This document shows positions 5,219 through 55,122 of a stretch of DNA of 64,000 nucleotides, piece by piece. The stretch's first letter is position 1. Each line of letters starts with the position of its first letter. Where the stretch lies: positions 15,246 through 79,245 of IMG/VR virus record IMGVR_UViG_3300046008_000478; one strand, given 5' to 3'. Below the pieces are notes generated by a model. The model searched no databases and was not told the DNA's origin. It saw only the letters and a program-made list of their open reading frames with translations. A program made the position numbers and the translations under genes. The stretch is from a virus.

Positions 5219-5425
5219 ATGAACATCACACAAACTTGGGAGGAGCTTGGCGTCAAGCGCCCAGAGCGAGGTGATCACCCACACATGGATCCGCGCCAGG
5301 CAGCCGAAGAGTCAATGAAGAACTGCAGAGCATTGATTGTGGATTTGATCCACGCCGGGCGACTTCCTGCTCCTCCAATGGGCAAGAGCTACATCCCAGG
5401 AGCAGACGGGGTGAGGCTGGCATGA
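5219..5425 (+). CDS. Hypothetical protein
   Basis: ATGA overlap with terS. Confidence 0.55.
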   Translation: MNITQTWEELGVKRPERGDHPHMDPRQAAEESMKNCRALIVDLIHAGRLPAPPMGKSYIPGADGVRLA

Positions 5426-32738: not shown

Positions 32739-35700
32739 ATGAGCATCCTCGACAACACTGCCATTGAACAACAGCTACTGGCCATGGGCGAGAAAAAGTC
32801 CGCCGGAGATGCGCCAGCCGCGCCCAGGTCCGACAGCGCAGCCAGCGGGCCACAAGCTTTTGTTCAGCGGTATGCAGACCTTGCCGCAACCACCGGGGCA
32901 AAGCTCGGTGTGGCGCCAGAAGTTCTGCTTGGTCAATGGGGGCTGGAGACAGGCTGGGGCAAGAGCATCATCCCGGGAACCAACAACCTGGGCAACATCA
33001 AGGGTAAGAATGGCCCCATGGCCACCGACAACCAAACTGGCTCGCGTGACTCCTACCGGGCGTATAAGGACGACGCTGATTTTGGCAATGGCTTCACTGC
33101 ATTTATCGGAAACTCAGAGCGCTACCAGGGCGCCCTGAATTCAGGCGCAGATGCTGGCGCGTACTTCTCTGCCCTCAAGAAAGGTGGCTACGCAGAAGAC
33201 CCCGCCTACGTGCAAAAGGGTGTAAGCGCAACTCGTCTTGCGTCACAATTCCTGGGTGGGCGTGCTCTACCTGCAGGGCAGGTGAGTGCAACGGAGGCGC
33301 CAACCGAGGCTCCGCAGTACCACTGGGGTGCACAAGATGGTCCAACGCGCACCGTTGCCACTAAGCCAGCCAGCTTCGCTGAAAAGGCGGCAGACACCGC
33401 TATTTCCCTGGGATCTGGGTTGCTTGGTGGCGCCAAGAGTTTGACGGATGTATTTGGCGCAGACAACTCCGCATCACAATTTCTTGGCGAGCAATCCAAG
33501 AATGTTGACGGTTACACATCGGATGAGCGCAAAGCGGAGCGCGCAGCCAGTCAGGAAAAGATCAAGCAAGCTGAGCTGTACGGTTCTGCATGGGATGAGA
33601 TCAAGGCCAACATCAGTGCATTTGCAGATGCCCCCATTGACATCGTAGTGGGCGCGGTTGGATCCAGTGCCCCAACCCTGTTGAGCATGTTCATTCCGGG
33701 GCTTGGTCAAACTGCTGCTGCACGCCTGGTGATGGGCGGGATTATGGGTGCCGCACAGGGGACTGGCGCTGGCAAAGGCAGCATCTACGAGGCTGTGGAA
33801 AATAAGCTGCTGGAGTCCGGCATCGACCAGGACACAGCAAAGAAAACAGCGGCGGCAGCGCAAGCATACGACGGCCAGAATGGCGGAATGATCGCAGCCA
33901 ACGGAATCATGGGCACCATCGCTGGACTGACTGGTGTCGAGGGCTCGCTCGCCAAAATACTGGGAAAGAAGGTCGCAGAAGGCGCCGCAGAAAAAGCAGC
34001 CCCTGGACTGATTAAAACTTTTGCTAAGGGTATTGCGCAGGAGTCCCCAATAGAAGGTGCCCAAGGCGGCCTTGAGCGAGTCTCTGGGAATGTTGCTCTG
34101 CAAAACCAAGGGTACGACACTCCAACATTCCAAGGGGCTGCCGGACAGGCGGCTATGGAAAGCTTGGCATCCGCACCAATGGGTGGCGGCTTTGCTTTGC
34201 TGAGTCGCAACGGCCAGCCAGCCGGCCCAATCACACCACCCAATCCACTGGAGGAGGCAGCCAAGGCGCCTGGCGCTGTACTGTCGCGCGCAGCCATTGC
34301 GCCGGATGACATCGCCCAGCGCGCCCATGAGATTGAAGGCGAACTCAAAGACAGCGGCGGCATGCAGGCCCTGCGCTCCATTGGTGCACAACACGTTGCC
34401 CCATTCCTAGAGGCCCTGTCGATTGCCAAGGACAAGCGCCTGCCGGCAGCCGCGCGCCAGGAAGCACTGGACACCATCAACCTGGGCATGCAGTGGATGG
34501 CTGACGGCAAGACCGCGGACCAGCCAGGCAATGGATCTCCATTCAGCACCAGCTTGGTGACGCAGTCAGCACCCACTCAGCCGGGCACGGACCTAGCCAC
34601 CACAGCGGGCGGAGCCCTGACCAATCCTGGCATGCCGCAGGCTTTCGATCCCAACACGATCGATGGCGAGGTCACGCGCGTGGACAACATGCTGGATGGC
34701 CCCAAGGCATTGCCGGCGCCACCAGGCCCAGCACTCACCAATCAAACAACTCAGACGCCTGCACCCGCAGGCGTTTCTACTTCTGCACCACAGGAAATCA
34801 CCAATGTCACTCAAGCCCCTCAGTCCAAGCAAGCAGCGCAAGAAGGACAAGAAGCACCCGCAGCTGCCACCCCAGCAGTAGACACTGCGCGCACGCAGGT
34901 TTCGGCGCCCAAGGTATCTATACCCACTGGCAAGGGAACAGCTCAGTCACGAAAGCGCCGGGCCCAGCTCGATGCCATGGTTGTCAGCGGATTCGACACG
35001 GTGGAGCGCCGCGACGATGGCTTCTACCTGATCAACCACAAGTCCAACGAAGAGATGCGCCTGGATGGCATGGGTGACGCGCAGACTGCCCGGGTAGCCA
35101 TTAAATTCAAGATGGATGCGGACTCGCACGTAGCGCCATCATCCCCTCTGAATGACAAGAAGGCGCCTTCCGAGGCTCAGATTGAGGCCGGCAACTACCA
35201 CAAGCCAGTCACATCAATCAACGGCTTCAAGGTCCGTATTGAGAACCCCAATGGGTCAACCCGAAGCGGCACCTCGCCCGATGGCAAGAAGTGGTCCAGC
35301 ACCATGGCCGCCCACTATGGCGAGCTCGAAGGCACGCTGGGCGCAGATGGCGACAAGGTCGATGTGTTCATTGGCAGCCGCCCGGACAGCGACAAGATCT
35401 ATGTGATCGACCAGAAGAACAAGGACGGCAGCTTCGACGAGCACAAGGTGATGATGGGCTACCAAAGCCTGGAAGCCGCCAAGGCCGGCTACCTGGCCAA
35501 TTACGAAAAGGGCTGGACCGGGATGGGCGCCGTCACCGAGATGGGTGTGGCGGAGTTCAAGGCCTGGGTGAAGTCGCAAGAGGCGCTGAAGCCAGTGGCG
35601 TACACTGACCCCAAAACAACAGGGGTAGAGAATGACGAACGAGGATCTGACGCAGCAGGCGCTGGACTGGATACGCAATCGGAAGGAATCACTGGAGTCA

Positions 35701-38700
35701 GCAGCAGCACTGGAGAAGGAGTGCGGAATCCAGCTTCGACAAAGGGGGCTGGATCCACTGGATCTTCCGGAGCCACTCAGCTCGATGGTAATGAAGCTAC
35801 TGTCGCAAGAAACGCAGAGCTCCTAGCTCGGGTACGAAGCGCTATTGAGGGGCTGCGCGCTCGGTATCAGGCGCAGCTCTCCGTCGCAAGTACCGATGCG
35901 GAGCGTAAAAAACTCCTGCACGAAATATCTCGACTCCCCGATGTAAACGACCCTAGTGGAGAGTTGCTTCAGGGGTACTCAAATGTTGCCTCTGCATGGG
36001 AGCGCGCTTTTGGTCAATCCGTTGGTGCTTATGTAGACGGAAGGTCGTCGGCAGACGATGGCTTCCAGATGGGAAGCGATGCACTCGTAAACCTGCTTAA
36101 CCAACAGATGCCATTGCAGTGGACGATGGCCCATGAATTCAAGCACTTGAGCGAGTTTGTGCCGAGCCTGAAGAAGCTGTACGACAGAATTTTCAGCCTC
36201 ATCCCACAGGGTGCGCGGTCAGAATACCTTAGCTATCTGCACCGTACAGGCCAGGCGTCCACCAAATCTCTCGATGCGGCCACTGCCGCGGATATCGCCA
36301 AGCTGCGCCAAGAGATGGTTGCAGACTTCCTTGGGCAGCGCTTTACCGACAAGGCTTGGCTTGAGCAGCTTGCAAAGCAAAAGCCAAATCTTTTTGGTGA
36401 GTTTGTCCGCGACTGGTTGAGCATACTCAACAACGCCATACACGAGCTTATTTCCGCACTGTCAAAGGGGAATAACCCAAAAGACATTGACCGACTGATG
36501 CTGGGTCATCTGAAGCAGCTCCAGGAGATGAAACTACTGGCGGTTGATGTGGCTACAGAGTGGGCAGAGCGCAACCCAAGGATGTCAAAGAGCACAGGCG
36601 CAAGCGAAATACTGCATAGCTCCCGCATCGACTCCATCAACGAGCTCGGCAACCTCAACCTGGACGCCATGTCTATCGATGAAGACCTGGACATGGTCGA
36701 GTTCCTGAAGGCGCAGGCGGAGTTTGATGCACAGCGGCCAGCAGCCAAGGTCGATCCCAAGCGCGGCGGGCCGGTGCAGCCGCGCGCGGATATTGCCGAT
36801 GCCGAGATCCAGGCGCATGGCCTGGCGGCCGAGGATGCTTATGGCGACGCGACCTGGGTGCATACCCACAAGTCAGCCGTCATGCTGAACACCACGGCCC
36901 GCAACCTGTACAAGCAGGGCGACGAGTCCCGCATCGATCTGCTGCAAGAGCAAGACGGCAAGTGGGGCACCGAGGGTGGCATCCGCGGCACCTGGGTCGG
37001 CAATGACGGCATGTCTACCGGCGGAACTACCAGCCTGAAGATGGCTCAGAAATTCGTCAGCCGATTCATTGCGTCCAAGGATTTATTCGCACGCAAATTT
37101 GACATTGCGCAGACTTACTCCAGCGCATCCAGGGCCAACCTGCTGAATGCCTGGAATGCCTTGAACAAGATGGATGGCGTGCGCAAGTATGCCAAGGCCG
37201 ACAAGACAGCCATGTCCATGAAGGACATCGCGACCCAGTTGGGTGTGACGAAGTTCTATGACGTGTCCACCTTCACTGAGCGCCAAAGCCCAACCGAATC
37301 ATTCCTGATGGTTGAATTCACCAACAAGGAGACGAGCGAAACCCAAGAAGCCAACCTGACCATCGAGAAGGATGGCGACCAGCGCTTTGCCACCGCCCAC
37401 ACCGGAGCATTGAACCGCAACGGACTGGGCGGCGCCTTCTACCAGATGGCTGTGGAGTACGCTGCACGCAACCGGCTGGTGATTCGGCCTGATGATTCGC
37501 TGTCTGGCGTGAACACCTACCGGCGCACCGAGCAGATGCTGGCGTCCGCTATGCGCTCGGGAAAGTCCAACATCATGGTTCCGCATTCGGTGCAGCGGGT
37601 CTACGGATTCCAGAACGATGCCAAGACGCAAGATGAGCACGATGACAACGTAGTGCGCTTGCTGCTGGCCGGGCTGCGCAACGCACGCGAGCTGGCGCCT
37701 GAGATGGGGCTGCTGAACTACCACCCTGAAACCGACACCTTCACCCTGAAGAATGGGAAAGATGCGACCGGAATTGTGGATCGCATGCTGGCCAACGAGG
37801 ATGCTCGTGCATTTGGCCTGGGCCGCAGTACCCTGGCGCGCGCCGTGCTGACAGAGATGGCATTGCTTGGGCAGTTGGACGTCAAGTCCATCCAGTCCAT
37901 CGGAACCCCGCTCTTGTACAGCGCCCGCGAGGATGCTGAGCTGGAATACAAGCTGGTCGAGGACCAGTACAAGGGCACGCCTCAGTGGATGAAGGCGCCA
38001 GATGGCAGCCAGACACAGCTCACCCAGCGCCAATGGGTGCAGGTGCGCACGCCTCAATTCAAGGAATGGTTTGGCGACTGGGAAAAAGCCCATGCTACCG
38101 GCGGCGTCTGGGCAACAAAAGAAGATGTGTCCAAGGTCGTGGGCTCAGATGGTGAGCCTCTGGTGGTTTACCACGGGACCGACAAGGGCGGATTCATGGC
38201 GTTCAACCAGCCCGGCGGCACCAAGCGCGGCGACCTGGGAGTCTTCACGACCAGCAATGAAGGCATGGCTCGCAGCTATGTCCGCAAGGGTCGGCCGCAG
38301 GATATGACGCCACCAGTTGGGCTAGGCGACCTGGAGGAAATTGGCTACGCTTTTGAGCAAGGATTCCGGATCGATGGTGACTTCTACGATAGCGAAGAGG
38401 AGGCTCGCGATGCGGCGCAAGAGGGGGATGTGATTGCTCCAGCTGTGCGCGCCATGGATATTGATGGCTATTTTATAGATGGGCCACGGGAGACTGGTCA
38501 TTTCTTTGCAACCATGGACGATGCGGTGGAAGAGGCGCTTGGCTTGTACGACGGAGCAACCGGAATCTCCACAATTTACGCCGCCTTCGCCAACATCCGC
38601 CACCCAAATGAGACCAATTTTGAAGGCGCACTCTGGGGTGGCGAGCGACCAGAGCAGTACGTTGTATCGATTGATGGGGATCTGCAGTCGCGCGCGGATG

Positions 38701-41700
38701 GTAAGCAATACTTCACCCGAGAAGAGGCCGAGGCGTTCGCCAAAGAGCATCCCAACCCACTCTACCAGGATGACGATGGCAGTGACTACATCGAGCCAGC
38801 TCAAGACCACTACCAAACCACCGACGACGCAGTGCGCGAAGGCCTGAAGCATGGCCACGACGGCACGATCATTCGCGAGGTTATTGATGACGGCGGCGGA
38901 ATTGGCTACGACGACATGCCTTCCGATGTGTTTGTGGCCAACAAGCCAGAGCAGTTGAAGTCGGCAGACTGGAACACGGGTGAGTTTGGATCGTCGGATG
39001 ACCTGCGGTACAGCGAGAGACTCATCGAAGCATCGTCAGCGCAGCACCAAATGGAGATCGAAAGGGAGGAGAGGGAGATTGCCGCCACCACTCGATTGTC
39101 TGCCGCAGAGCAGAGCTCCATCGCCATCGAGGCTGAACTCATTGGCATACCAAAAAGCAAGCTTGAGCTTGAGGTGCGTCGTATTAAGGCGCAGTTCCCA
39201 GCATCTGCGGGCTGGGCGCCCATGGAATTCGACAAGATCAATAAAGCCGAGTACGCCAAGAGGGGCGTCCTGATAATGCGCACTGTCGAGTTCAAGAAAC
39301 AGCCTTACGATTTCCATCTTGGGCGCGATGGAAAGGACGACACGTCTACACACAACAAGCGGGTGACGTCAGTTGCCAAAGGCATAAGTGACGAGATTAT
39401 TGGACTGTCCAACAAGGCTAAACAAGGTGACAAGAACGCGCAAATCACCATGGACCAGATTGGCTGGTACAGCAAGGTAGCCGCCATGTTGCACCATCAG
39501 TTTGGCGGCTTCGCAGACTTCCTTGCTCAGCTCATGGGGCCAACCAGCGCCAATACGCCAGTGGAGGGCAATGTCAAGTACGCTATGTCCGCACTCAAGT
39601 CGGCAATGTCTGGCAAGTGGGATGGCCTCATCGCGGACACAATACGCTGGAATGAAGGCGTCATGCAAGCGGCTGCCGGATTGGATGCGGTGATCGATGC
39701 TAATCGCGCAAAACCCAAGGCAGAGCGCCTGACCGGGAAAGCTTTAGCTCAGACCGTGGAGTTCAAGGATGCCATGGCAGTAGTTGCAGCGGCCGCACCC
39801 TATCAAGGAGAGGTGCCACAGCAAGATAGCGGAGCTAAATTCGGCATGGCCACCCAGGGTGTTGTAGAAATACTGGCTGGCATTTGGAGTGACTTCCAGC
39901 GCGGTGATGCACCCAAGACCAAGAACTACTACCAAAACCTGATTGGCCGCCAGTTCACCGGCGCCACCATCGACGTCTGGGCGGCGCGCACGCTGCGCAG
40001 AATGGCTGGATTGCTGCGCCTGCCAACGTCGGCAGAGAAGGGCGTCGCTGGCAACATTGGGGCCAAGCTAACCCCGGGCGCGGAGTTTGGCTTCGGGCAG
40101 GAGGCGTTTGTTAAGGCTGCTGAAAACCTGCGCAACTCAGGCATTGAGGAATTTGCCAACACCACGCCGGCTGATGTGCAGGCGATGATTTGGTTTAGCG
40201 AGAAAGAGAGTTGGGCTCGCAGCAACTGGACCACCAAAATTGGCGAAGGCGGCTCTGCTGAAGCAGAATTCAATCTCCAGGGCAATGCCGATCGAGATGG
40301 ACTGGAGGATGCGCGTAGGATGGCTCGCAAGGGACTGCCTCACACCGGAAGCACCAAGCCAAACAAGACGGAGGAGGGCGCCCAACAAGCATCCATCAAT
40401 GCTGGCGTGGGGCAATTCCCATCCGCCCGCGAAACCCCTCAGTACAAAGAACGCCTGGCGAAAATCATCGCCAAGGCGGTGCGCGCCCGCAATGAAGCCC
40501 GCGTGCAGTTTGAGTCCATGCGCGGCGCAGCCGACCGCTGGATTGCTGGGGTGACCCCGGCCACGGACTTCACGCCAACGGACGCCACCATGGCCGAGGT
40601 TGGCGCAGAGCTGGAGTCAAAGGTTGCCATGGGCGAAGATGCCCACAAGGTCTTGGCATTCAAAGCGCTGCCGACCATGGGTCGTTACGGCTATGACGAG
40701 CGCTCCATTGACTTCGAGGGCGTCACCCGCCAAGGCTACAACGGCGTCGATATGCTGAAGCCGCTGCTTGAATTAGCCAAGGACAAGGCGCAGGATGGCC
40801 TGCTGTTTGGACGCGTCTTGCGCGCGGATGAGGATATCGACTACCTGCGGCACCGCCCTGGCCTTGAACTCTATCTGGCTAAAGGCACAACGATGGAGAA
40901 GGCGCAGCCACTGCTGGACAAGCTCACGGAACTTGGCTTCCAGCAGTTCACATTCGTGGTGGATCCAGTGCGGACCCCGGGCGCCTTATCCGGCAAGATG
41001 GGGGATGTTGTTGGCCTGCGCTACATCTTCACTCCGGAATTTGCGTTGCGCGAACCCAACCCTGAGTACGGCGGCGACCAGACTTGGGCGCCTGGAGCCT
41101 TGACCGATGACCAGATCCGGGGCAGAATGTTAGCGAAGGCTGATGAGCTGCATGGCCTCTCTGATGACCTACAAATGATTGCAGGCGTTTCCTCTGTTGA
41201 GAGGCGCCATTACGAGGCTAATGTTTATTTTTGGGGTGATTATGACAACGCAATTGCAAGACTTGGAGCGAGGGCTGGAAATAGTGACTCGGAAAAATCA
41301 TGGAGCGGACAGCCCTTACGCTCAGGGCTTGAGGGCGCAGATCGCCGCCGCGAAATGGACTCAGGCTCAGAAGACGCAAAGTCCTTCGCAGCTCGAAGAG
41401 ACGTACTTCGGGGGGACTCGGAGCCAGCCTTCAGCCGCCGGGACGAGGGATATAGCGGACGGGATGGAGCGGATGGCTCGGTCTCGATTAAAGGAGCTGT
41501 CCACTACGGACGGCAAGCAGGCCTAAGCGTACTGTCCGGGTCCTCTAGTGGGACCGGAATCAAAGGCGCAGAGCAAGACCGCTTGAGTGCACCAGGAGTA
41601 GACCCCCGCATCAAGCGCCGGGTCTATTTTTACATCCCAACATCAGTCGGAATTCCCCAGTCAGAGATTGGACTTGGGGCGCACGTCTACATGGCAGACC

Positions 41701-44702: not shown

Positions 44703-45151
44703 TGAAAATTGTCAAGTCGACCGAAGACCTCAAGCGCATGGCCCTCGCCCGGGGTGCTAGCGCCAGCTTCGGCGGTGCAAAGTTCAACAGCACCGAGGAC
44801 CGGGTGAGCTCCAGGCCCATCAAGCCTGAGCCCAAACCAGAGCCTGCCCCAGAGCCACCCAAGGAAAAGCCGCCAGAGCCACGCATTGAGCAACCCAAGG
44901 CAGTTGACCTGGCGCCCATCGTTCAGGCTGCTGTGGATGCTATGGCGGCCAGCGTGAGCGACATTGCCAAGGACAACGCCCGGGTGATGCAGGAAGTCAT
45001 GAAGGCGGTGGAGCGAATAACTGCAGCGCCTCCCGCAGCCACGACCATCACCTCTACCGTGCCAGAGATGACGGCCAAAGCCTGGCAGCTCAAAGTGAAT
45101 CGCGATACCCGCGGGTTCATGGACACAGTCGATATCAAACAAATCGGATAA
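44702..45151 (+). CDS. Pro-rich protein ending W.LKVNRD..G (first gene of the inserted cassette)
   Basis: TAATG coupling; PEP repeats. Confidence 0.7.
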   Translation: MKIVKSTEDLKRMALARGASASFGGAKFNSTEDRVSSRPIKPEPKPEPAPEPPKEKPPEPRIEQPKAVDLAPIVQAAVDAMAASVSDIAKDNARVMQEVMKAVERITAAPPAATTITSTVPEMTAKAWQLKVNRDTRGFMDTVDIKQIG

Positions 45152-45160
45152 GGAGCAACC

Positions 45161-45370
45161 ATGCAAACAGTTTCCGGGTCACTGACCCTACTCAACGCCC
45201 ACACGGACGCACCACAGGTTTACTGGAATGGAGCCAAGGTCGAAGGCATCACCGCCATCGCCATTGCAAACGGCGGGGGAATGCATCGTGTTGTACTGAC
45301 CCTGCCCGAAGACCCAATCCTTGCTGAGATGCAAGCGGCTGGTATCACCATCAAACGGAGTGCAGTATGA
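45161..45370 (+). CDS. Hypothetical protein
   Basis: RBS AAGGAG. Confidence 0.7.
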   Translation: MQTVSGSLTLLNAHTDAPQVYWNGAKVEGITAIAIANGGGMHRVVLTLPEDPILAEMQAAGITIKRSAV

Positions 45371-45597
45371 GCGGCGAATTCCTTTTCATCCTGCCTACGG
45401 GCTGGGAGCAGATTGTTCCTGCGGACGTTGACATGATTGAAGGCGGCTTGTCTACCTGTCGCGCTCACATCAGCGGCGGTCAGATGGGTGACTTGACCGC
45501 CTTGTTCATTGCCAGTGGACGCTTCACGGCCCCTACCTACATTGACGAGGCCAAGCTGCTGAATGACGATATTCTGGTTGTGCATACGGTGACGTAA
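45367..45597 (+). CDS. Hypothetical protein
   Basis: ATGA overlap. Confidence 0.65.
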   Translation: MSGEFLFILPTGWEQIVPADVDMIEGGLSTCRAHISGGQMGDLTALFIASGRFTAPTYIDEAKLLNDDILVVHTVT

Positions 45598-45600
45598 TCA

Positions 45601-48186
45601 GTGACTGCCTACACGATCAGCAACGGGGGGCTCAATTACTTTGATGCCCAAACTGCCCCAAGCCTTAACGCGACATTAGACACCTACACAATTTCTGCGG
45701 GTAGTACCCTTGTTTGTCGCACCGATACCTACGCCTGCGCCAATCACTCGATAGCGGGTGGTTCGCTGGACACGGTGACATTCACCGGGCAGGGTGGCGA
45801 ACTTCGCTTTGACCCCACCTATGTGCGCGAGATTGACTACACAGGCGGTAGCGGTAACTCGCCCGCCTACGGTGCGGCAGTCAGCCAAGGCGGTGTAAGC
45901 GGTGTGTTCTTGGGGTGCTGGGCCAACTGGCAGAGCGACCCCGCTGTGGCTGGTGTAGCCATTCCAGCTACCGGAAAAATGAAGATTGGCGGAGTGACTG
46001 GCGGGGCTTTTGCTGCCGGTGCGCTGACGGGCATCGCCGCAACTTGCTCCGGTGCAGACAAGCAATCGTGGATCGAAATCAAAGGCCCCGACACAGCCAC
46101 CATCACAGTGCCGCGTATCGGCAAGGTCACCAGTGTTGAGGCGTGGTACGAGCTTGGCACCACCACTGGTGTGCGCGGTCAGATCATCCCTTGCCCCACC
46201 ACCGTCACGGTTGCAGGCGTTTGGCCGGGTGTGTGGATTGAGACTGCGGCAGGCTCTGGGGTCTATGACCGCTATGCCGGTGTGGGTTCGCAGGCTGCTT
46301 TGGCGACTACCCGCACCACGGCTGAAATGAAGATCATTTGGCAGACCACCGCAGGCATTCGTATTGGCAACGATGGCACTAACGGTGTCGGCTACCTGCC
46401 TGTCACGGGCTGCAAGGTGCGCATTCCAGCCACTATCCTGACCAACTGCACCCGCGTGGTGGGTGGATCAGGGCCAAGGGTGCTACCCAATGCCACGATT
46501 GCCACACGGCAGGAGCTGGTGACTACCGGAGCGGGTTACTTTGATCTGCGCAATCTGGTGTGCCAGTGGTACATGAACTTCAGCCAACCGTTCTATGTCA
46601 AGTATTTGAACTGCGCGGTATCGGATTCGATGATCTTGTCGGAGGTGGCATCACCGCTGGATGTGGACAACTGCATCGTGGGTGTGACTCAGGCACAGAG
46701 CAACTTCGCCCTGAATGTGGCTTCATGCTTCGCTGGCGGGGCTATCAAGAACAGCCTGTTTGGTCGGTTTGCAATGGCGGCATCGGGCAACTACGTGGCT
46801 TCGTTGGCCTACATCACTGGTGTGGCTTTCAGCAGCAACACACTGTTGTCTGCTACCTTGCGCGGCAATGCCAGCACGGGTGTAATTAACTCAACCCAGT
46901 TGGTGAACTGCACGTTTACCAACGAGACTTGGATTGGTGGACGCGGTTACTTCGTTGGCCCGCAGCGTTGTACCTTCAACAACACGACATACTACGACCA
47001 CACGATAACCACCACGACAACGGCGACCAACCCAATGTACGCGCTGGACTTCGCCATCGGAGGCTCTGGTAATGTGGTGAACGGTTTTGCAATGCCGCAA
47101 CCCAACTTCGGCCCATACAGCGGCTTGGTGTCAGTCAATGCTTGCTACACCACGCTGATCAAGAACATCGGCACGGACTACGACACGCCGCTGGTGATGA
47201 ATGCTGCGGTGACAGGCGTAGGTGTAAACGGTGTTGGTAACAATGACGGCATCACGATCAAACGGATGTACCTGAGCAACACCCGGTCAGGGCCGTATGC
47301 GTTCGTCAACTCGGACACCAATGTGCTGATTGAGAACATTTCAGGCGATGCGGCTGACACTTCAGTGGTGGCTGGATTGAACGTGCTGGTGAAGAATGCA
47401 CAGCTCACCGGAGCAACAACGGGTCAAGTGTCGGTCTATGGGTCACACTGGCTGACACGCTACACCAGCGCCACGGCTGGTTTCACGGAGATTCTGTGCA
47501 ATGAGCCAACCAGCTCCAGTGCAGCGCAGTGCTTTGCATCCGGTGGATTGCCACAGTTCAACTCCAGCGGATCGGTGCTGCTGACCAAGGTGGGCGACTC
47601 GGTGACTTGGGAAATGCCGTTCTTCGCAGTGGGCTACACCGCGTTCACCAACGGCGCACCCACTATTACCGGCACGAACGTGACCTTTGGCACACGATGG
47701 GGAAATCACGACATTGAATTCCAAGTGGACACCGGCACAGGCTACGGTGGCACATGGCTGAACCTGACTGCTGCCAACCTGATTACCAAGACGTTCACCA
47801 GTACGGCAGGTTTCAAGCTCAAGGTGCGAGCCACTTGTGCGATTGCTGCGGCCACCAACGTCATTACGAATATGCGCGTAGCCATGACCACCACGGCCAG
47901 TGCCCGCAAGGGGACGCTGTACCCGCTGTCGGTCAACACCATCACGTTCACAGGCTTACCCACTGGCACGGATGCAGTGGTGCTGACTGCTGGGACTTCT
48001 ACGGTGCTGGCAAGTGTGGATGCAGGAGTAGGCACCACGTTCAGCTACCAGTACGAGGGAACACCAACCGTGGATGTTGGCTTTATTCAACCCGGCTATG
48101 TACCTCTGTACATCCGGGGACTTGCACTCACCAGTGTGGATTCGTCCATCCCTGTATCGCTTTCAATTGACAGAAATTACGTCTAG
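45601..48186 (+). CDS. Large beta-helix/fibre-like structural protein
   Basis: T/G/N-rich beta repeats; C-terminal DRNY. Confidence 0.7.
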   Translation: MTAYTISNGGLNYFDAQTAPSLNATLDTYTISAGSTLVCRTDTYACANHSIAGGSLDTVTFTGQGGELRFDPTYVREIDYTGGSGNSPAYGAAVSQGGVSGVFLGCWANWQSDPAVAGVAIPATGKMKIGGVTGGAFAAGALTGIAATCSGADKQSWIEIKGPDTATITVPRIGKVTSVEAWYELGTTTGVRGQIIPCPTTVTVAGVWPGVWIETAAGSGVYDRYAGVGSQAALATTRTTAEMKIIWQTTAGIRIGNDGTNGVGYLPVTGCKVRIPATILTNCTRVVGGSGPRVLPNATIATRQELVTTGAGYFDLRNLVCQWYMNFSQPFYVKYLNCAVSDSMILSEVASPLDVDNCIVGVTQAQSNFALNVASCFAGGAIKNSLFGRFAMAASGNYVASLAYITGVAFSSNTLLSATLRGNASTGVINSTQLVNCTFTNETWIGGRGYFVGPQRCTFNNTTYYDHTITTTTTATNPMYALDFAIGGSGNVVNGFAMPQPNFGPYSGLVSVNACYTTLIKNIGTDYDTPLVMNAAVTGVGVNGVGNNDGITIKRMYLSNTRSGPYAFVNSDTNVLIENISGDAADTSVVAGLNVLVKNAQLTGATTGQVSVYGSHWLTRYTSATAGFTEILCNEPTSSSAAQCFASGGLPQFNSSGSVLLTKVGDSVTWEMPFFAVGYTAFTNGAPTITGTNVTFGTRWGNHDIEFQVDTGTGYGGTWLNLTAANLITKTFTSTAGFKLKVRATCAIAAATNVITNMRVAMTTTASARKGTLYPLSVNTITFTGLPTGTDAVVLTAGTSTVLASVDAGVGTTFSYQYEGTPTVDVGFIQPGYVPLYIRGLALTSVDSSIPVSLSIDRNYV

Positions 48187-48194
48187 GAATCATC

Positions 48195-48950
48195 ATGGGC
48201 CACTTACTGCTTCCATCGTCTGAAACGCCTATGTGCGTATACACGGTAACCAATACTTTAAGCGGCAAGACGTATGTTGGTCAGACGACAAAGCTGGCTG
48301 GTGACCGCTGGTACAAGCACGTATGGAATAAAGAAGGGTCTGCAATAAGTGCAGCAATCAACAAATACGGGGTCGATAATTTTGAATTTGCAGTTATCGA
48401 CAACGCTGAAAATATTGACCAGTTAAATCACAAAGAGGACTTCTGGGTAAAGAGGCTGAACACGCTATCACCGTTTGGGTACAACTTGTTGCACGGCGGG
48501 AAAAACAGAATACCGTCTGAAGAAACACGGAAGAAGCAATCTGCATCAAAGCGTGGTAAGCCGTCAGTCCCTGAGCATGTTGAGAAGCGCACCATCGCAC
48601 TCCGCGCATATCACGCGGCGTTGCCAAAGACGCCAAAGCCTCCAAAGGTGTACGTTGACAGGAAGTCGCCTGAGTATCGCGCAAAGATGTCTGCCGCCAA
48701 GATGGGCACCCGCATAACTCATAGGTCAATCAATGCCACAAACCGGACAGGTAAGTCAGGCGTTTTCTTTAGAGAGAACCATGGGCCTTCTGGTGCATTC
48801 TCCGCCCACGCAATGGTGGACGGGGAACTGAAGTCTAAAACATTTGGTTGCATGAAGCGCGGAAAAGACGAGGCGTTTCGACTCGCCTGCCAGTGGCGAG
48901 TAGCAATGGAACAGATCAACGGATTAACTGTAATCGGAGAAGCTAAATGA
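48195..48950 (+). CDS. GIY-YIG homing endonuclease with NUMOD3 and AP2-like domains
   Basis: VYTVTN..SGKTYVGQT; AINKYG..NF; GYNL..GG; N.TG.SGV. Confidence 0.85.
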   Translation: MGHLLLPSSETPMCVYTVTNTLSGKTYVGQTTKLAGDRWYKHVWNKEGSAISAAINKYGVDNFEFAVIDNAENIDQLNHKEDFWVKRLNTLSPFGYNLLHGGKNRIPSEETRKKQSASKRGKPSVPEHVEKRTIALRAYHAALPKTPKPPKVYVDRKSPEYRAKMSAAKMGTRITHRSINATNRTGKSGVFFRENHGPSGAFSAHAMVDGELKSKTFGCMKRGKDEAFRLACQWRVAMEQINGLTVIGEAK

Positions 48951-50338
48951 AAATCACCTCACAAGCTGGCTTGATAGTCGGCACCAATCTGACTATTGAT
49001 GAGCCGGGGCGCATCATCACGTTGAACGCCGGAGGCTCGTTGGTAGCCAAGGATGGCGTGTCATGGCAGGCGCTGTACTCCAAGCTGGTGAGCTTGTGGG
49101 CCACCTCCACTTACCAAGACAGTCCATTCCCCGCTTATGCGATTGATGCGTTGTCGGGCCAGTTCCAAATTGGTACAGACGGAAGTTCGTACAGTGGCTG
49201 GAAGTTTTCCGATGTGGACTCGGACGCAACCCGAAATATGCTGCGTGACGGTGGCTGGTCTGAATACTCTGCTGCGGGTGTTTTGCTTCAGCAGTACGCT
49301 GGCTTCATCGGCTTGGGTGGCATCACCCCAGCAACGACTGTGCAGCCGTACTACCACTTGGGTGCAACCGACGCGCCCATCAACTTCCCATTCACTGACC
49401 AGTTCAATGTGGGTGTGCGGGTGTTTGGCGATGCGTCACATGGCAGCTTGGATAAGCGCACCTACGCCAAAGCCTTTGCCCGTGAGTACGGCAAGAAGTT
49501 CAAATCCTCCATCTTGGCTGATACGGGTGCGACAGCTACCGGCGCGAACAAGGTCAACTTCTTGGTGTCCAATGAGGATGACTTGAAGATCACCGGCTTG
49601 CTGGGTGCTGTGCAGGCGACAGCGGATACCGCCATGTCTGGCGCTCCTTACTCTGGCATCACAGTGGCCTACTACACGCTGAACCAGACGCGCAGCATTG
49701 CAGGCACGAACCGCGACTTCAAGATCATCATCAACGGCAATAGCGGGACGCTGGAGCAGATTTATGCCAAGGTGCAGTACATGCTGCGCCAAGGGACTGA
49801 CATCAATACAGGCGGTACGGCTGGCACAAAGACGGGCAAGATTCAGGATGAGCTGCTCAAGTTCGTGGGCGACACCTTGGTCACTTCGCAATCCGTATTT
49901 ATTGACAACGTACTCTCCGCGGACAGCAACCGGGTTGAATTCTACGACGACACAAACACCCTACGGGTCAACAACTACACCGCATCCGGTGAGATGACGT
50001 TCAATGGGGTGCTGGTGGGTGCTGGATCGAGCTACCGCCTGATGTTCACCTCGCCAACGGGCGCAGGCAACGACTACGGTGAGGCTGGTGCTGTCACGGT
50101 CAACAACGCCGCAGGAACACCCATTACGGGAACCATCAGCGCAGCGTCCATCGCGTTCGACTTCGATTGGAATGGCAACGTGCAGGCTGGCTACTCTGGC
50201 GCTACCACGCGACCCGTCACCTTGATAGGGATTCGACCAGGCTACGGCAAGTTTGCAGTTGGCACAGGGACTATCACGCAGTCCAAGGGCATTAGCTTGT
50301 CATTGGTGGCTGAGCAAGACCGTGTTTACGCCGCATAA
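48947..50338 (+). CDS. Structural protein (cassette)
   Basis: QALYS.L..LW N-terminal domain; C-terminal DRVY. Confidence 0.7.
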   Translation: MKITSQAGLIVGTNLTIDEPGRIITLNAGGSLVAKDGVSWQALYSKLVSLWATSTYQDSPFPAYAIDALSGQFQIGTDGSSYSGWKFSDVDSDATRNMLRDGGWSEYSAAGVLLQQYAGFIGLGGITPATTVQPYYHLGATDAPINFPFTDQFNVGVRVFGDASHGSLDKRTYAKAFAREYGKKFKSSILADTGATATGANKVNFLVSNEDDLKITGLLGAVQATADTAMSGAPYSGITVAYYTLNQTRSIAGTNRDFKIIINGNSGTLEQIYAKVQYMLRQGTDINTGGTAGTKTGKIQDELLKFVGDTLVTSQSVFIDNVLSADSNRVEFYDDTNTLRVNNYTASGEMTFNGVLVGAGSSYRLMFTSPTGAGNDYGEAGAVTVNNAAGTPITGTISAASIAFDFDWNGNVQAGYSGATTRPVTLIGIRPGYGKFAVGTGTITQSKGISLSLVAEQDRVYAA

Positions 50339-50341
50339 CCC

Positions 50342-50848
50342 ATGCCCATCGCGTTCGACCCCGCTACGCAGCGCGTCATTCTTGACAGCGCCAGCGTAAC
50401 CGCGACCCAGATTTACAGCCGGTGGGCTGATTGGATTGCCACCGGAGACAACGCCAAGTACCTGCCAGCCTTCCGCACTGCCGGGGGTGATGACTTGGGT
50501 TCTGGCTTGTCCATCCCGCCTTACTACTTTTTGGCAAACGGCTGGAAGGTTCGCCCAATGGAGTCCAGCCACAACCTCACGATCACGGGAAACCTGTTTG
50601 TGGACGGCGGCGGGGTTCCAGTGGTATCCACCCTTGGGGTGTATCAGGTCAATGTGAACTACACCGTGCCTGTGCAGGCGCAGGGCATCAGCACCAGCGG
50701 ATCGAGTGGCCCAACAGCGACCGAGATCGCAGCGGCGGTTATCGCGGGCCTCATGGCTACCACCATCCCAGTGAATATGGCCAAGGTCAACGGGCAGGCG
50801 CTGGCGGGCGCGGGAACAGAAGCCAGCCCATGGGGGCCGGGGGCTTAA
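50342..50848 (+). CDS. Structural protein, paralogous N-domain to the upstream gene
   Basis: QIYSRW.DW; C-terminal VN..KVNG....G.GTE.SPW.P. Confidence 0.7.
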   Translation: MPIAFDPATQRVILDSASVTATQIYSRWADWIATGDNAKYLPAFRTAGGDDLGSGLSIPPYYFLANGWKVRPMESSHNLTITGNLFVDGGGVPVVSTLGVYQVNVNYTVPVQAQGISTSGSSGPTATEIAAAVIAGLMATTIPVNMAKVNGQALAGAGTEASPWGPGA

Positions 50849-51088
50849 ATGGCAAGCGCATGGGGTAAGAGCTGGGGCGCGGCGTTTGGCGTTGCATTCG
50901 GCCTGGCAGTCGCAACTCCACCAACTCCGGCCCCTGCAGCCCCGGTCGCGCAGATTGGTGGCGGCGGAACCTCGCTGGCAGACTGGGAGCGCGAGCTTGA
51001 CCTGCAGCGCCATAAACAGATTCAGGCAGAAGACGAAATTATTGTCACCGCGATTGCACAGATGATCGCCAACGGAGCATTCGGATGA
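50849..51088 (+). CDS. Small protein (WG.SWG..FG N-terminus, EDEII C-terminus)
   Basis: ATGA overlap with the next gene. Confidence 0.65.
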   Translation: MASAWGKSWGAAFGVAFGLAVATPPTPAPAAPVAQIGGGGTSLADWERELDLQRHKQIQAEDEIIVTAIAQMIANGAFG

Positions 51089-54000
51089 CCACAAAATGTA
51101 TGGAAATCGTCAACAAGATGGCGGACGAGGACCAGGATTCCTTGCTGGCTAAGCTTGAGCAGTACCAAAAGATTGGCGTGCCCGCGAGCAAAGCTCAGAA
51201 GATGGCTGCCAAGGACATGCTGGAGGAGCTCAAGGGTGAGCGCGCTGATTTCATGAAGGCCGTGGAGGAGCAGCACCCGGAGCCAGATCCAGTTGCATCC
51301 AGCGGCCAGTTCGATGCCTCGAACCCAGACATCCGCCACAGTACCCGCGAGGAGATCGCCGCCGGGGCCGACGCCATCAAGGCAATGTCCGATTCGGTGC
51401 GTGACAACCTGGAGCCGGCCAAGGCCCCGGGCGGGTGGCACGCCTATGTACTGTACGAGGCGCGCAAGATCCTGCCTAAGCCATCGGACAAGCTGAAGAA
51501 GCTGACCGAGCGAAACTCATTCATTGCGCACCAGGACAATGAGTACCTGGCCAACGTCGATGGCTCCTACTACGGCGTCAACAAGTGGGAAGATCCGGAT
51601 GCAACCGGGCACGAGGAGGATGGTAAGGAGCCATTCGTGTTTGCGTTCCACTCGCTTGAGGACGGTGGGTATAACACCACAAACTCAATGGAGAGTGACG
51701 TCGGTGAGTTGATGGCCGCTATTCGCAAGAGCAAGCAGGGGCTGAAGCTTAGCGCGCGAGATGACGGACTAAACTCGAACAAGTCCAAGTCTTTTGATGT
51801 AGTTGTAGACCGTGGCGACCCCGACACCAAGGCTGATGCTAATGTCCATGGCGCTGGCGCCGCTCGCGAACATCTCAGGGAGTCCTTGCATTCTTTCGGC
51901 AACCTTCTTGTGAGCGAGTGGGAGGAGGCTTCGGTACTTGAGGGCGGTGTAGATGGACTGGTGAGTGACGCCAAGCTGCTTTCCGATATACACAATGCTC
52001 CGACCTTCATTAAGCATGGCTACAGCGGACTCAATGCTCCACTTCAGAGGATGGTGCTCCATGCGGTGGGTCGAGCTCTCCATAATGGCGAGGTTCTCGA
52101 TGCTGTTGTTCAGTCTATCCCCGTCGATGTGGTGGACATCCTCTCCAGGGAGAAGCTTACGACCAATGGATTGCTCCATGACATATCGATGCTCAAGTGG
52201 GTTCAATCCGTCGACGGCAATTTGGCGGTATCCACCCTTATTGATGTGGCCGCCAGTGCGGTATCCGGCGTTCCTGCACTCGAACGAGCAAAAAGTTCTG
52301 GCGCCAGGCTTGATGAGGGATCGGTATTTTTGAAAAATAATTCCGCAGGTGATGCAAGTGCAGGTGACTTTGGTGGACATGTTTTTGATTCCAGTGATGT
52401 TGAGTATTCCATGCGGAGCGGGACTTCTACATGGGATATGTATGAAAACACAGTTTTCGACAATGTTATCTACAAATTACAGAATCGTCAAATCGATGTG
52501 AAGCGCGTCATCGAGTCCATTGCCAAATTCACAGGCAAAGTCGCGGATGACCTGAATGTCTACCTGCAAGAGGAGTTGTTCCATGGCCGGGCCGCCAAGC
52601 GCGTAACGGACTTTGCCCGCATGGAACTGCAGCCGATGATCGAAGCCATCCGCAAGGCCGGCTACGAGCTCTCCGATGTGGAGGAATACCTGCACGCGCG
52701 CCACGCCAAAGAGGCCAATGCGGTTATCGCAACCCGCAACCCTGGAGATCCAGGCATGGCGGACGGTGGATCCGGCATGACCAACCAGGCGGCCGACGAT
52801 TACATGGCCAACCTGACTCCAGAGAATGCCCGCAAGCTGGGCGCCATTGCAGCCCAGGTTGACGCAATCACCAACACGACCCGCCAGATGTATGTGGACT
52901 ATGGCCTGGAGTCGCAAGACACGGTAGATAGCTGGAAGAGTTTGTTCCAGCACTACATCCCGCTGCAGCGCGAAGACAAGGATGGCAAGGGCGGAATGGG
53001 CATCGGCCAGGGCTTTAGCGTCAAGGGCAAAGAAACCCGCGGGCGCACCGGATCCAAGCGCAAGGTGGTGGATATCCTGGCCAACATTGCCATGCAGCGC
53101 GAGCGGCTGGTGGTGCGTGGCGAGAAGAACCGTGTCTCCAATGCATTGGTGGGCCTGGCCATTGCCAACCCCAACCCAGAGTTTTGGAGCGTTGGCTCGC
53201 CCCCGACTGAGCGGGTGTACGACCCCAAGACTGATACCGTGGTGGATCGGGTGGACCCTATGTTCAAGAGCCGCGAGAACGTCATGGTGGCCAAGGTGCT
53301 ACAGCCAGACGGGTCCGTCAAAGAGGTGGCTGTGATCTTCAACGAAGATGATGCGCGCGCGGTGCGCATGGCTGCAGCCCTGAAGAACCTGGATGCCGGC
53401 GACCTGGAGGGGCTCTGGGGTGTGAGCGCCAAAATCACGCGCTACTTCTCCGCCATCAACACCCAGTACAACCCAGTGTTCGGTGTTGTCAACTTGATCC
53501 GCGACGTGCAGGCGGCACTGATTAACCTGGACACCACCGTCTTGGCCAACAAGAAGGGGCGCATCGCCAAGGATACTGCGTCAGCACTGGCCGGCATCTA
53601 CCAGGATATGCGCGCCGAGCGTAAGGGTCAGCACCCAACTTCCAGGTGGTCCGTTCTATGGGAGGAGTTCCAGCACGAAGGTGGGCAGACCGGCTTCCGC
53701 CAGATGTTCGCAACTAGCGCCGACCGGGCGGACGAGCTCAAAGGAATTCTCAACCCTGACGCCTGGATGGATAGCAAGCTGGGCAAGATCTTCACCGCCA
53801 ACGGCGCACTGCGCGTACCGCTATCTAAAGCCAAAGAGGGCGCGGCCGTGATCTTTGATTGGCTGAGCGACTACAACGAATCGATGGAGAATGCGGTGCG
53901 CTTGGCATCTTACAAGGCAGCCACCGACCAGGGCATGAGCAAGCAAGAGGCCGCCAGCCTGGCCAAGAACCTGACCGTAAACTTCAACCGCAAAGGGCAG

Positions 54001-55122
54001 ATCGGCCAGCAGGCAGGCGCCGTTTACGCCTTCTTCAACGCAGCCATGCAGGGCACAGCCAGGATTGGCCAGACGTTGTTCACCATGGAAGGCGGAAATT
54101 ACAAGACCATGCGCCTGAGCTCCACCGGCAAGAAGGTGGTCTACGGCGGCATGCTGCTTGGCACCATGCAGGCCTTGGCGCTGGCGGCTGCGGGGTTTGG
54201 GGATGACGACCCGCCCGAGTTCCTGCGCGCGCGTAGCTTGATTATCCCAACGGGTGGCAAGACGTACATCAGCATCCCAATGCCGCTTGGCCTAAACGTC
54301 CTGCCAGGCATTGGGCGAAGCTTGACGGAGTTTGCACTGGGCGGGTTCCAGGCGCCGACCAAGCGCGCTATCGGGCTGTTCAGCCTGTTCGCTGACAACT
54401 TCAACCCGATCGGCAATGCAGGCGTCTCGATGCAGACCCTTACCCCAACCGTGTTCGATCCTCTGGTGGCCATCACTGAGAACCGGGACTTCACCGGCAA
54501 GCCGATTGCCCGGGTATCCAGCAACAAGGCGGTCCCCGGGTACACCCAGTACAAGGACAGCGCCACCGTGGTTGGAAAGCTGATTGCTGAAGCCATCAAT
54601 GGCGCCACCGGTGGAAACGCCTATGTGGCCGGAGCCCTTAGCCCCACACCTGACCAGATCGATTACCTGCTGGGCCAGGTGACTGGCGGCGTTGGGCGCG
54701 AGCTATCAAAGGTTGAGCAGACCACATTGAACCTTGCGCGCGGCGAGGACTTGCCGCTGTACAAGATCCCTCTGGTTGGTAGGTTCGTTGGCAACTCAGC
54801 CAGCCAGGCCAGCCAGGGTGGCCAGTTCTACGCCAACGCCCAAAGGCTCAACGAGCTGGAGACTGAGGTCAAAGGCATGATCAAGGACGGCAAGCGCGAG
54901 GAGGCTGGCGCCGTAATGAAAGAGCATCCAGAGGCCTACCTGATTGCCCAAGCCAATTCGGCTGAGCGCCAGGTGCAGCGCCTGAAGCGTGAGAAGCGGA
55001 TGATTGTAGAGAGTGGCGCAAGCCGTGAAGCGGTGGCCGCCAAGGAGGCTCAGATTACCCAGGTGATGACCCGGTTGAATCAATCCATGGAGCGGCTACG
55101 CGAAAAGAGCGCGGCCAATTGA
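51085..55122 (+). CDS. Giant ejection protein, part 3, with C-terminal LPD38-like domain
   Basis: HYIPL; N.IRD; TVNFNRKG...YAFFNA..QG; N.DF.GKPI; P.QIDYL. Confidence 0.85.
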   Translation: MTTKCMEIVNKMADEDQDSLLAKLEQYQKIGVPASKAQKMAAKDMLEELKGERADFMKAVEEQHPEPDPVASSGQFDASNPDIRHSTREEIAAGADAIKAMSDSVRDNLEPAKAPGGWHAYVLYEARKILPKPSDKLKKLTERNSFIAHQDNEYLANVDGSYYGVNKWEDPDATGHEEDGKEPFVFAFHSLEDGGYNTTNSMESDVGELMAAIRKSKQGLKLSARDDGLNSNKSKSFDVVVDRGDPDTKADANVHGAGAAREHLRESLHSFGNLLVSEWEEASVLEGGVDGLVSDAKLLSDIHNAPTFIKHGYSGLNAPLQRMVLHAVGRALHNGEVLDAVVQSIPVDVVDILSREKLTTNGLLHDISMLKWVQSVDGNLAVSTLIDVAASAVSGVPALERAKSSGARLDEGSVFLKNNSAGDASAGDFGGHVFDSSDVEYSMRSGTSTWDMYENTVFDNVIYKLQNRQIDVKRVIESIAKFTGKVADDLNVYLQEELFHGRAAKRVTDFARMELQPMIEAIRKAGYELSDVEEYLHARHAKEANAVIATRNPGDPGMADGGSGMTNQAADDYMANLTPENARKLGAIAAQVDAITNTTRQMYVDYGLESQDTVDSWKSLFQHYIPLQREDKDGKGGMGIGQGFSVKGKETRGRTGSKRKVVDILANIAMQRERLVVRGEKNRVSNALVGLAIANPNPEFWSVGSPPTERVYDPKTDTVVDRVDPMFKSRENVMVAKVLQPDGSVKEVAVIFNEDDARAVRMAAALKNLDAGDLEGLWGVSAKITRYFSAINTQYNPVFGVVNLIRDVQAALINLDTTVLANKKGRIAKDTASALAGIYQDMRAERKGQHPTSRWSVLWEEFQHEGGQTGFRQMFATSADRADELKGILNPDAWMDSKLGKIFTANGALRVPLSKAKEGAAVIFDWLSDYNESMENAVRLASYKAATDQGMSKQEAASLAKNLTVNFNRKGQIGQQAGAVYAFFNAAMQGTARIGQTLFTMEGGNYKTMRLSSTGKKVVYGGMLLGTMQALALAAAGFGDDDPPEFLRARSLIIPTGGKTYISIPMPLGLNVLPGIGRSLTEFALGGFQAPTKRAIGLFSLFADNFNPIGNAGVSMQTLTPTVFDPLVAITENRDFTGKPIARVSSNKAVPGYTQYKDSATVVGKLIAEAINGATGGNAYVAGALSPTPDQIDYLLGQVTGGVGRELSKVEQTTLNLARGEDLPLYKIPLVGRFVGNSASQASQGGQFYANAQRLNELETEVKGMIKDGKREEAGAVMKEHPEAYLIAQANSAERQVQRLKREKRMIVESGASREAVAAKEAQITQVMTRLNQSMERLREKSAAN
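51769..52380 (-). CDS. HNH homing endonuclease (Zn finger, HNH, HTH) nested antisense in part 3
   Basis: EHRYVMEQ.IGR.L..GE.VHHIDGDRLNN.IENL; CxxC..CS..C; tandem HTHs. Confidence 0.9.
   Translation of the reverse strand: MSTKVTCTCITCGIIFQKYRSLIKPGARTFCSFECRNAGYRTGGHINKGGYRQIAVDGLNPLEHRYVMEQSIGRKLLPGEDVHHIDGDRLNNSIENLAIMESSTHRMEHHPLKWSIESAVAMLNEGRSIVYIGKQLGVTHQSIYTALKYRSLLPLAHKKVAERMQGLPEMFASGASAMDISISLGVGVATVYNYIKRLGLVRV

Follow-up and report, generated by a model that had tools for sequence, protein, structure and literature searches.

Cysteine-tipped adaptors at the breaks of a giant phage protein encoded in three pieces: a candidate system for joining the pieces head to tail

Here we describe a candidate system for rejoining the pieces of a split phage protein, encoded in a 64,000-nucleotide stretch of DNA (the window) that makes up the final 64 kb (positions 15,246 to 79,245) of the IMG/VR record IMGVR_UViG_3300046008_000478, an uncultured virus of 79,245 bp rated 96% complete. 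On one strand of this DNA, terminase, portal/adaptor, structural and internal-virion genes are followed by very large open reading frames (ORFs), three of which, ORF1, ORF2 and ORF3 (Table 1), correspond to consecutive parts of a protein that relatives encode as one chain. The only cysteines of these three proteins lie beside the ends that face the breaks, within short terminal modules that we call tails (upstream piece) and heads (downstream piece), which occur in two main types, A and B, pair strictly within type and recur at split junctions of related viruses. We propose that ORF1, ORF2 and ORF3 probably dock through these cognate adaptors and are then linked by interchain disulfides into one giant, otherwise cysteine-free polyvalent protein of the LPD38 type, which, by analogy with the systems compared below, is most likely packed in the capsid and injected.

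Retranslation of the three ORFs, 5107 residues in total, gave exactly the four cysteines listed in the original prediction, at residue 3410 of ORF1, residues 3 and 350 of ORF2 and residue 5 of ORF3, and confirmed that the outer ends (the N-terminus of ORF1 and the C-terminus of ORF3) are cysteine-free. Over 12 other ORFs of the window cysteine accounts for 51 of 6518 residues (0.78%), and the chance that four cysteines placed at random in 5107 residues would all fall within 5 residues of the break-facing ends is ~2e-10. The start assigned to ORF3, at 51085, is favoured by an ATGA overlap with the 79-amino-acid (aa) ORF upstream and by a GGAG located 7 nucleotides (nt) upstream, as well as by the residues preceding the cysteine, which are kept in homologues. 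The N4 virion RNA polymerase, cited in the same prediction as a cysteine-free ejected protein, indeed contained 0 cysteines in the 3500 aa that we counted.

Comparison with single-chain relatives placed the three ORFs along one protein. In the homologues P0129 (4342 aa), P0173 (4389 aa) and P0141 (5553 aa), all with zero cysteines, one chain covers ORF1, residues 39-288 of ORF2 and residues 438-1342 of ORF3. The first break falls inside a domain whose first half is found in ORF1 (residues 3100-3380) and whose second half is residues 39-288 of ORF2, and residues 438-1342 of ORF3 constitute a conserved C-terminal module, in which Pfam identified LPD38 at residues 1041-1231 (54205-54777). The closest relative, P0124 (3988 aa, 77% identical to ORF1), is equivalent to a fusion of ORF1 and ORF2 that lacks the junction cysteines; its sole cysteine is the penultimate residue and lies in a tail of the same type as that of ORF2 (tail-B). 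P0124 has a helical loop at the position of the window's break, and comparing the two showed this loop to be swapped in the window for tail-A, an endonuclease gene and head-A together. The same was seen more generally: in fused homologues a variable loop links ..FVEExQSDWGQ.. to ..APFVTKTEGWLNLALKR.., and split forms carry two adaptor modules instead. Records of cultured phages agree: one annotated coding sequence in Dolichospermum phage Dfl-JY45, and likewise one in MW202675, matches both the last part of ORF1 and the beginning of ORF2. A DNA-level search of a phage collection with positions 41500-45200 returned nothing. Judged by these protein alignments, ORF1, ORF2 and ORF3 are pieces of one protein.

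The C-terminal module of ORF3 (residues 445-1340) matched 337 phage records, including Stx, Ralstonia, Vibrio and Burkholderia phages. It was also found to share 53% identity with a protein of Bacillus phage Dartukuta (MW749009.1 52574-55204) and 42% with a protein of the archaeal Methanosarcina virus MetMV (MK170447.1 40096-42681), an unusually broad host range for a single module.

We then characterized the segments that bear the cysteines. Tail-A ends more than 25 proteins with the consensus ..[IV][VI]ERMKKAGVL[EQ]VxCD, immediately followed by the stop codon (in a longer form, ..DFxGI[IV]ERMKKAGVLEVxCD), and head-A (MACRYTYKGKTYEAxEFDDVLRAM..) opens about 30 homologues, of which Cys3 is the sole cysteine. 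Tail-B has the C-terminal consensus ..Y[ND]QRIxxxxxLLxCL(KK), and head-B is a module of ~60 aa with the consensus xxxC[LM]xIVxxMxxxDQDALLxRLDxxQxxG....AQ... An AlphaFold2 model of ORF2 (mean predicted local distance difference test score (pLDDT) 71) folds head-A as a beta-hairpin (residues 4-13) with two helices within residues 14-32, and tail-B, at low pLDDT, as a hairpin and a C-terminal helix (residues 337-350) that ends at the cysteine. A variant of the A pair, A' (a tail ending in ..LxINC[DK] and a head beginning MxxC.Y[TS]F.G.DG..), occurs in two related contigs, L030 and L046, at a different site that is not homologous to the window's break, indicating that the A module is portable. The arrangement of the modules follows a simple grammar, with a tail alone on first pieces, a head alone on last pieces and both on middle pieces; the middle pieces mix types, some carrying head-B and tail-A, others head-A and tail-B. 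There are even proteins of 100-120 aa made only of head-B and a tail of type B or A (P0289, P0285, P0291 and P0264), one of which, P0289, shares its final 24 residues identically with ORF2; these may serve to extend chains, or may be what remains of pieces that lost their cargo. The view that each cysteine lies in a short adaptor-like segment, and that the two junction pairs differ, is thus upheld, A and B being distinct, conserved and portable families that pair within type.

To learn whether cysteines mark breaks generally, we assembled 80 viral contigs encoding relatives of the ORF2 domain by means of an alignment-based locus scan (a scan with a single protein query found nothing). These contigs contained 14 split junctions, five of type A or A' (window, L003, L009, L030 and L046) and nine of type B (window, L003, L008, L011, L014, L017, L018, L034 and L052). 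Without exception, a cysteine was present on both sides of the junction, at a distance of 2-4 residues from the C-terminal end of the upstream protein and of 3-9 from the N-terminal end of the downstream one, and the type of the tail was the same as that of the head on the next head-bearing gene, a match whose chance is 1 in 2002 for a set of 5 A and 9 B junctions. Conversely, among the 49 unsplit ORFs of 2000-5055 aa in the same contigs none had a terminal cysteine and 47 had no cysteine at all. Split homologues had been predicted to show paired terminal cysteines and unsplit ones to lack them, and this is what the survey returned. In L018 the tail-B appeared to be an orphan, a possibility ruled out once the downstream ORF was begun at its ATG: it starts with MATYSKC..., is 985 aa long and has no other cysteine. 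In the window, ORF3 carries the sole head-B of the entire 79-kb record, leaving it as the only candidate partner for the tail-B of ORF2.

Similar results were obtained beyond these contigs. Cysteine amounted to 0.05% of the 545,834 residues of 233 sequence homologues from a protein database, and in the 107 homologues having a single cysteine it was located in the first 12 residues (78 proteins), the last 5 residues (17) or elsewhere (12). A search with the head-B profile by itself, covering 1.84 billion representative proteins (E up to 0.001), recovered 299 proteins. In the best 150 of these, the match begins at residues 1-10 in 148, and the cysteine is kept in 133 of the 141 not seen earlier. 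The eight cysteine-less cases comprise five that begin just past the cysteine position, consistent by their alignment with miscalled starts, two spurious repeats and one protein with serine in its place (P0309). In 66 of 79 long head-B proteins the head cysteine is the sole one.

Tail-B and head-B genes adjoin each other at four places, at three of which the two are in the same frame and separated only by a stop and 2-4 codons (L003 5795-5812, L017 8204-8215 and L052 8309-8320). Occasional read-through there would yield a fused chain; with n=4 the frame bias is not significant.

To examine the docking of a cognate pair, we predicted the complex of tail-B and head-B, using custom alignments (loci-only for head-B), for which reason the benchmark counts given here are rough. 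The pair scored 0.46, whereas the highest-scoring of three controls had 0.01, and its runs agreed in at least 95% of contacts, with a partner pLDDT of at least 76. Of 80 solved complexes, 58 attained the mark for such folds, as did 2 of 110 mismatched pairs, and scores of 0.60 or less at the mark came from 7 of the 80 solved complexes and from both mismatches that passed. For the B pair, the predicted fold lends weak support to docking of the cognate adaptors.

Taken together, these data lead us to the following model. The tail-A of ORF1, a C-terminal helix and strand, would fit the N-terminal beta-hairpin and helix of head-A in ORF2, and the tail-B of ORF2, a C-terminal helix, would fit the small N-terminal helical module of head-B in ORF3. 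During assembly, in the reducing cytoplasm, the adaptors would dock non-covalently, and after release from the cell, when the particle meets an oxidising medium, the single cysteines of each pair of adaptors would form an interchain disulfide. The product, ORF1-SS-ORF2-SS-ORF3 at 1:1:1 stoichiometry, would be almost linear, since each cysteine is 2-9 residues from a chain end, and so could thread out as one chain, its links then being reduced inside the host. The original prediction of orthogonal adaptor docking with interchain disulfides is supported by the cysteine pairs at 14/14 junctions, the 49 unsplit ORFs without terminal cysteine and the matching of types; the bond itself we infer from these. 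Its description of the system as protein-level gene repair suits the A junction, which is occupied by an endonuclease gene, and suits the B junction less well, because the B arrangement is conserved with or without intervening genes.

Several points weigh against this model. The phage comes from an uncultured record and is known here from sequence alone, and sequence searches detected no similarity of ORF2, ORF3 or the head-B profile to the proteins of the only solved analogue, from cyanopodophage A4 (see below). Assembly takes place in a reducing cytoplasm, so that a disulfide could form only later, and the natural serine variant of head-B (P0309) implies that docking may suffice without a bond. 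A distance of 6.4 kb separates ORF2 from ORF3, which are matched by adaptor type and by the presence of a single head-B in the record. Finally, the complex prediction is weak, covers the B pair and reports no contacts, and with them no Cys-Cys distance.

One alternative, which we regard as unlikely, is that the pieces dock non-covalently and the cysteine pair bridges a shared metal ion or serves as a redox/thiol switch that times their separation. The pairing evidence applies to it equally, and both the reducing conditions at assembly and the serine variant are in its favour. We nevertheless prefer a disulfide over a metal site because each adaptor offers a single cysteine as strong ligand, with no other conserved metal ligand, be it histidine or a second cysteine, beside it, and because the aspartate that follows the tail-A cysteine is not invariant, being glutamate or lysine in some proteins (NCE and NCK occur); moreover, interchain metal sites with two ligands are unusual, and in the A4 structure the bond seen is a disulfide.

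It is less probable still that tail and head cysteines do not pair at all and instead tether the proteins to the portal, the capsid interior or other cargo, or belong to independent packaging or processing signals. In favour of this, pairing is an indirect deduction, and the tail-B and head-B genes lie kilobases apart in the window, L008, L011, L014 and L018; yet tails and heads come and go together exactly at chain breaks, with types matching at every one of the 14 junctions, first pieces lack a head and last pieces a tail, mini-proteins of head plus tail exist, and the fold score of the B pair is far above its controls.

A covalent peptide chemistry, by which a thioester-based ligation or a reaction akin to trans-splicing would produce one polypeptide, seems to us very improbable. 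What recommends it is that the cysteines exactly flank the break and that asparagine often precedes the tail-A cysteine (NCD), reminiscent of intein chemistry. However, Pfam found no HINT or intein domain, tail and head together amount to ~68 aa, below the size of an intein, and the cysteines, at -2 and at +3 to +9, are not where an N-intein starts or a C-intein is followed; in addition, the residue before the tail cysteine varies (N, V, E, D, A or Q), and the head cysteine is not the N-terminal residue, as native-ligation chemistry requires.

We give practically no weight to the last alternative, in which the terminal cysteines are chance occurrences (~2e-10 by the above estimate) or by-products of nucleotide signals at the junctions (starts, ribosome-binding sites or endonuclease targets), for even though the TGT GAT of tail-A (Cys-Asp) supplies the GTG start of the endonuclease gene in the window and L003, with its Shine-Dalgarno sequence in the LEVN codons, conservation of the motifs at the protein level extends over hundreds of sequences, the cysteine codon varies between TGT and TGC as do nearby synonymous sites, and the cysteine is kept, as TGC, in L009 and L046, where there is no endonuclease, all of which indicates that the constraint acts on the protein.

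Table 1. Pieces, adaptors and intervening genes of the split protein (positions are those of the window; residues are numbered within each protein)
Feature	Position	Strand	Description
ORF1, first piece	32739..42974	+	3411 aa; sole Cys at 3410 (...LEVNCD before the stop, codon 42966-42968, TGT)
ORF1 domains (Pfam)			glucosaminidase 47-161; InPase 812-945; LPD37 1471-1706; ART-PolyVal from 1804
Tail-A adaptor, final ~30 aa of ORF1	42882..42971	+	..AVESDFNGIIERMKKAGVLEVNCD; absent from fused homologues
HEG1, free-standing GIY-YIG/NUMOD3 homing endonuclease	42967..43647	+	226 aa; NUMOD3 and phrog_314 matches
ORF2, middle piece	43647..44702	+	351 aa; head-A at N-terminus, tail-B at C-terminus; Cys at 3 (MAC, codon 43653-43655) and 350 (...LLDCL before the stop, codon 44694-44696)
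Head-A adaptor, ORF2 aa 1-37	43647..43757	+	MACQYTYKGSTYEAWEFEDVLKAM...; Cys3
Tail-B adaptor, ORF2 aa ~310-351	44574..44699	+	..VDIQVKIEDTGEVATLRMDVHQTIDDFDSRQANMQTLLDCL; Cys350
Block between tail-B and head-B	44702..51088	+	six ORFs, 6.4 kb; none is a chain piece
g149	44702-45151	+	149 aa, acidic
g861	45601-48186	+	861 aa, 17 Cys
HEG2, second free-standing GIY-YIG endonuclease	48195-48950	+	Pfam GIY-YIG, weak NUMOD3 and AP2; phrog_314
g463	48947-50338	+	463 aa
g168	50342-50848	+	168 aa
g79	50849-51088	+	79 aa
ORF3, last piece	51085..55122	+	1345 aa; sole Cys at 5 (MTTKC, codon 51097-51099)
Head-B adaptor, ORF3 aa 1-~60	51085..51264	+	MTTKCMEIVNKMADEDQDSLLAKLEQYQKIGVPASKAQKMAAKDMLEEL; Cys5

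The gap between ORF1 and ORF2 is wholly occupied by HEG1, whose Shine-Dalgarno sequence (GGAGG, 42956) and GTG start lie within the final codons of ORF1 and whose stop overlaps the ATG of ORF2 (TAATG), an endonuclease gene thereby separating two ORFs that relatives have as a single one. In the window, as in L003, the last codons of the endonuclease also provide the GGAG of the head-A gene. An endonuclease gene is present at three of the five A-type junctions (window, L003 and L030), the first two being enzymes of the same GIY-YIG/NUMOD3 family (38% identical) and that of L030 an HNH_3 enzyme; the A-type junctions of L009 and L046 have none, with gaps of 11 nt and 3 nt, respectively.

The description of the system as neither intron nor intein held. 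No Rfam match was found within 42000-52000 at E up to 0.1, and a group I or II intron is further excluded by the overlap of HEG1 with both flanking genes and by the gaps of 3-11 nt at the junctions of relatives. A split intein is likewise rejected: there is no intein or HINT match in Pfam, the tail is ~30 aa long with its cysteine at -2, and the head is ~37 aa long with its cysteine at +3. A further idea, which we hold tentatively and consider doubtful, is that tail-A, homing endonuclease and head-A make up a mobile 'split-and-staple' cassette, in which Cys-tipped peptides are co-converted into an unsplit gene along with the endonuclease and the protein is rejoined after translation. The replacement of the loop, as seen against the 77%-identical P0124, fits co-conversion of the whole unit, without proving it.

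The B junction of the window is of another kind, being filled by a block of six ORFs. HEG2 is located between g861 and g463, and the window therefore has two homing endonucleases of one family in a short region. The gene g861, which had no Pfam or PHROG match, probably encodes an external protein (fibre or spike); with its 17 cysteines it stands out among cysteine-free neighbours, and the contrast highlights the avoidance of cysteine in proteins presumed to be injected. In this lineage the gene after tail-B begins on the tail-B stop codon: a g149-like gene, its 38-aa N-terminus conserved with that of the window, follows tail-B in L008 (1629-1742) and L014 (2921-3034), and in L018 an ORF (5296-5808) occupies the same overlapping position but was not matched to g149. 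Conservation does not extend to the rest of the block before head-B, and the tail-B/head-B junction may be a favoured site for the exchange of gene blocks. Directly after ORF3 there is a tyrosine integrase gene on the opposite strand (phrog_1, E 1e-37; 55584-56648, -), and the phage is therefore probably temperate.

If true, the proposed docking and linkage would explain how very large injected proteins remain functional despite gene splitting, shuffling and invasion by homing endonucleases, and would allow several cargo proteins to be packed in a fixed ratio and drawn through the tail as one thread. It would also turn the single cryogenic electron microscopy (cryo-EM) observation made in A4 into a general and predictive rule, by which terminal cysteines appear precisely at the sites of chain breaks. 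The adaptor pairs amount to two docking tags that are short, orthogonal and defined by sequence, and such tags might serve as tools for joining proteins. Should the cassette idea hold as well, it would represent a third route, besides introns and inteins, by which endonucleases harmlessly invade coding sequence, and the adaptors would let phages cut, shuffle and re-chain their injected cargo by links that are undone by reduction in the host.

Genes split by free-standing homing endonucleases have been described before, in Aeromonas phage Aeh1 (nrdA-a/nrdA-b with mobE) and in T4 (gene 39/60 with mobA). As in these cases, a free-standing GIY-YIG or HNH endonuclease gene lies exactly between gene halves that are contiguous in relatives, no intron or intein is involved, and the halves would reassemble as protein; whereas the Aeh1 and T4 halves reassociate through their native fold, the window's break bears added, portable Cys-tipped adaptors in place of a variable loop, and such adaptors are found at breaks without an endonuclease too. 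In 'fractured genes', split inteins have an endonuclease gene between their halves, and there, as here, a protein-level remedy acts at an endonuclease site with cysteine at the junction, but the adaptors differ from split inteins in having no HINT domain, in being too short, in the misplacement of their cysteines and in showing no sign of peptide-bond formation. A third parallel is offered by the docking domains of polyketide and non-ribosomal peptide synthases, short orthogonal C- and N-terminal modules that set the order of giant polypeptides, one type of which is a beta-hairpin that binds a C-terminal peptide. The window's adaptors would likewise set the order of the pieces; the proteins are unrelated, and the synthases have no conserved cysteine pair and serve substrate channelling.

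In their domains, the pieces resemble the phage-type polyvalent proteins described by Iyer, Burroughs, Anand, de Souza and Aravind (2017, PMC5512222), combining multiple effector and LPD domains (glucosaminidase, InPase, LPD37 and ART-PolyVal in ORF1, LPD38 in ORF3) and lying in a virion module, with terminase, portal/adaptor, internal virion protein (phrog_511) and structural genes upstream on the same strand. That study proposed that one chain is processed proteolytically, and its text lacks the words cysteine, disulfide, split, intein and homing endonuclease; the window's chain differs from the proteins it describes in being encoded in pieces with joining adaptors. An LPD38 giant, gp47 of the Stx phage phi24B, was detected in virions by proteomics and is a proposed ejection protein (bioRxiv 10.64898/2026.04.10.717836).

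The closest parallel is found in cyanopodophage A4 of Anabaena, where cryo-EM showed the C-terminal helix of gp27 seated in a cleft of gp26, with a disulfide between Cys1715 and Cys5 (PDB 9K2V, 9K3A; PNAS 2025, PMC12002296). There too one cysteine lies beside the upstream C-terminus (3410 of 3411 and 350 of 351 residues in the window) and one beside the downstream N-terminus (residues 3 and 5), and with Cys1715 two to three residues from the C-terminus of gp27, the geometry matches that of the modelled tail-B helix (337-350) with Cys350 and Cys5 of head-B. Searches of PDB sequences with ORF2 and ORF3 by phmmer and with the head-B profile gave no match, nor did Foldseek with the ORF2 model at E up to 0.001; with no similarity in sequence or fold found to PDB entries, A4 is an analogy and not a sign of membership in the same family. 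In our literature searches, which turned up no general account of ejected proteins chained through terminal cysteines, A4 was the sole published precedent, and the A4 paper describes a single bond, with no family-wide rule linked to gene splitting (PMC12002296). In contrast to the one link of A4, the window phage has two orthogonal adaptor types and a three-piece chain, and its head is a portable module of ~60 aa where gp26 of A4 is a protein of three domains. What is new beyond A4 is therefore the orthogonal, portable and sequence-defined adaptor families, the three-piece chain, the mini-proteins of head plus tail, and the endonucleases found at one of the two junction types.

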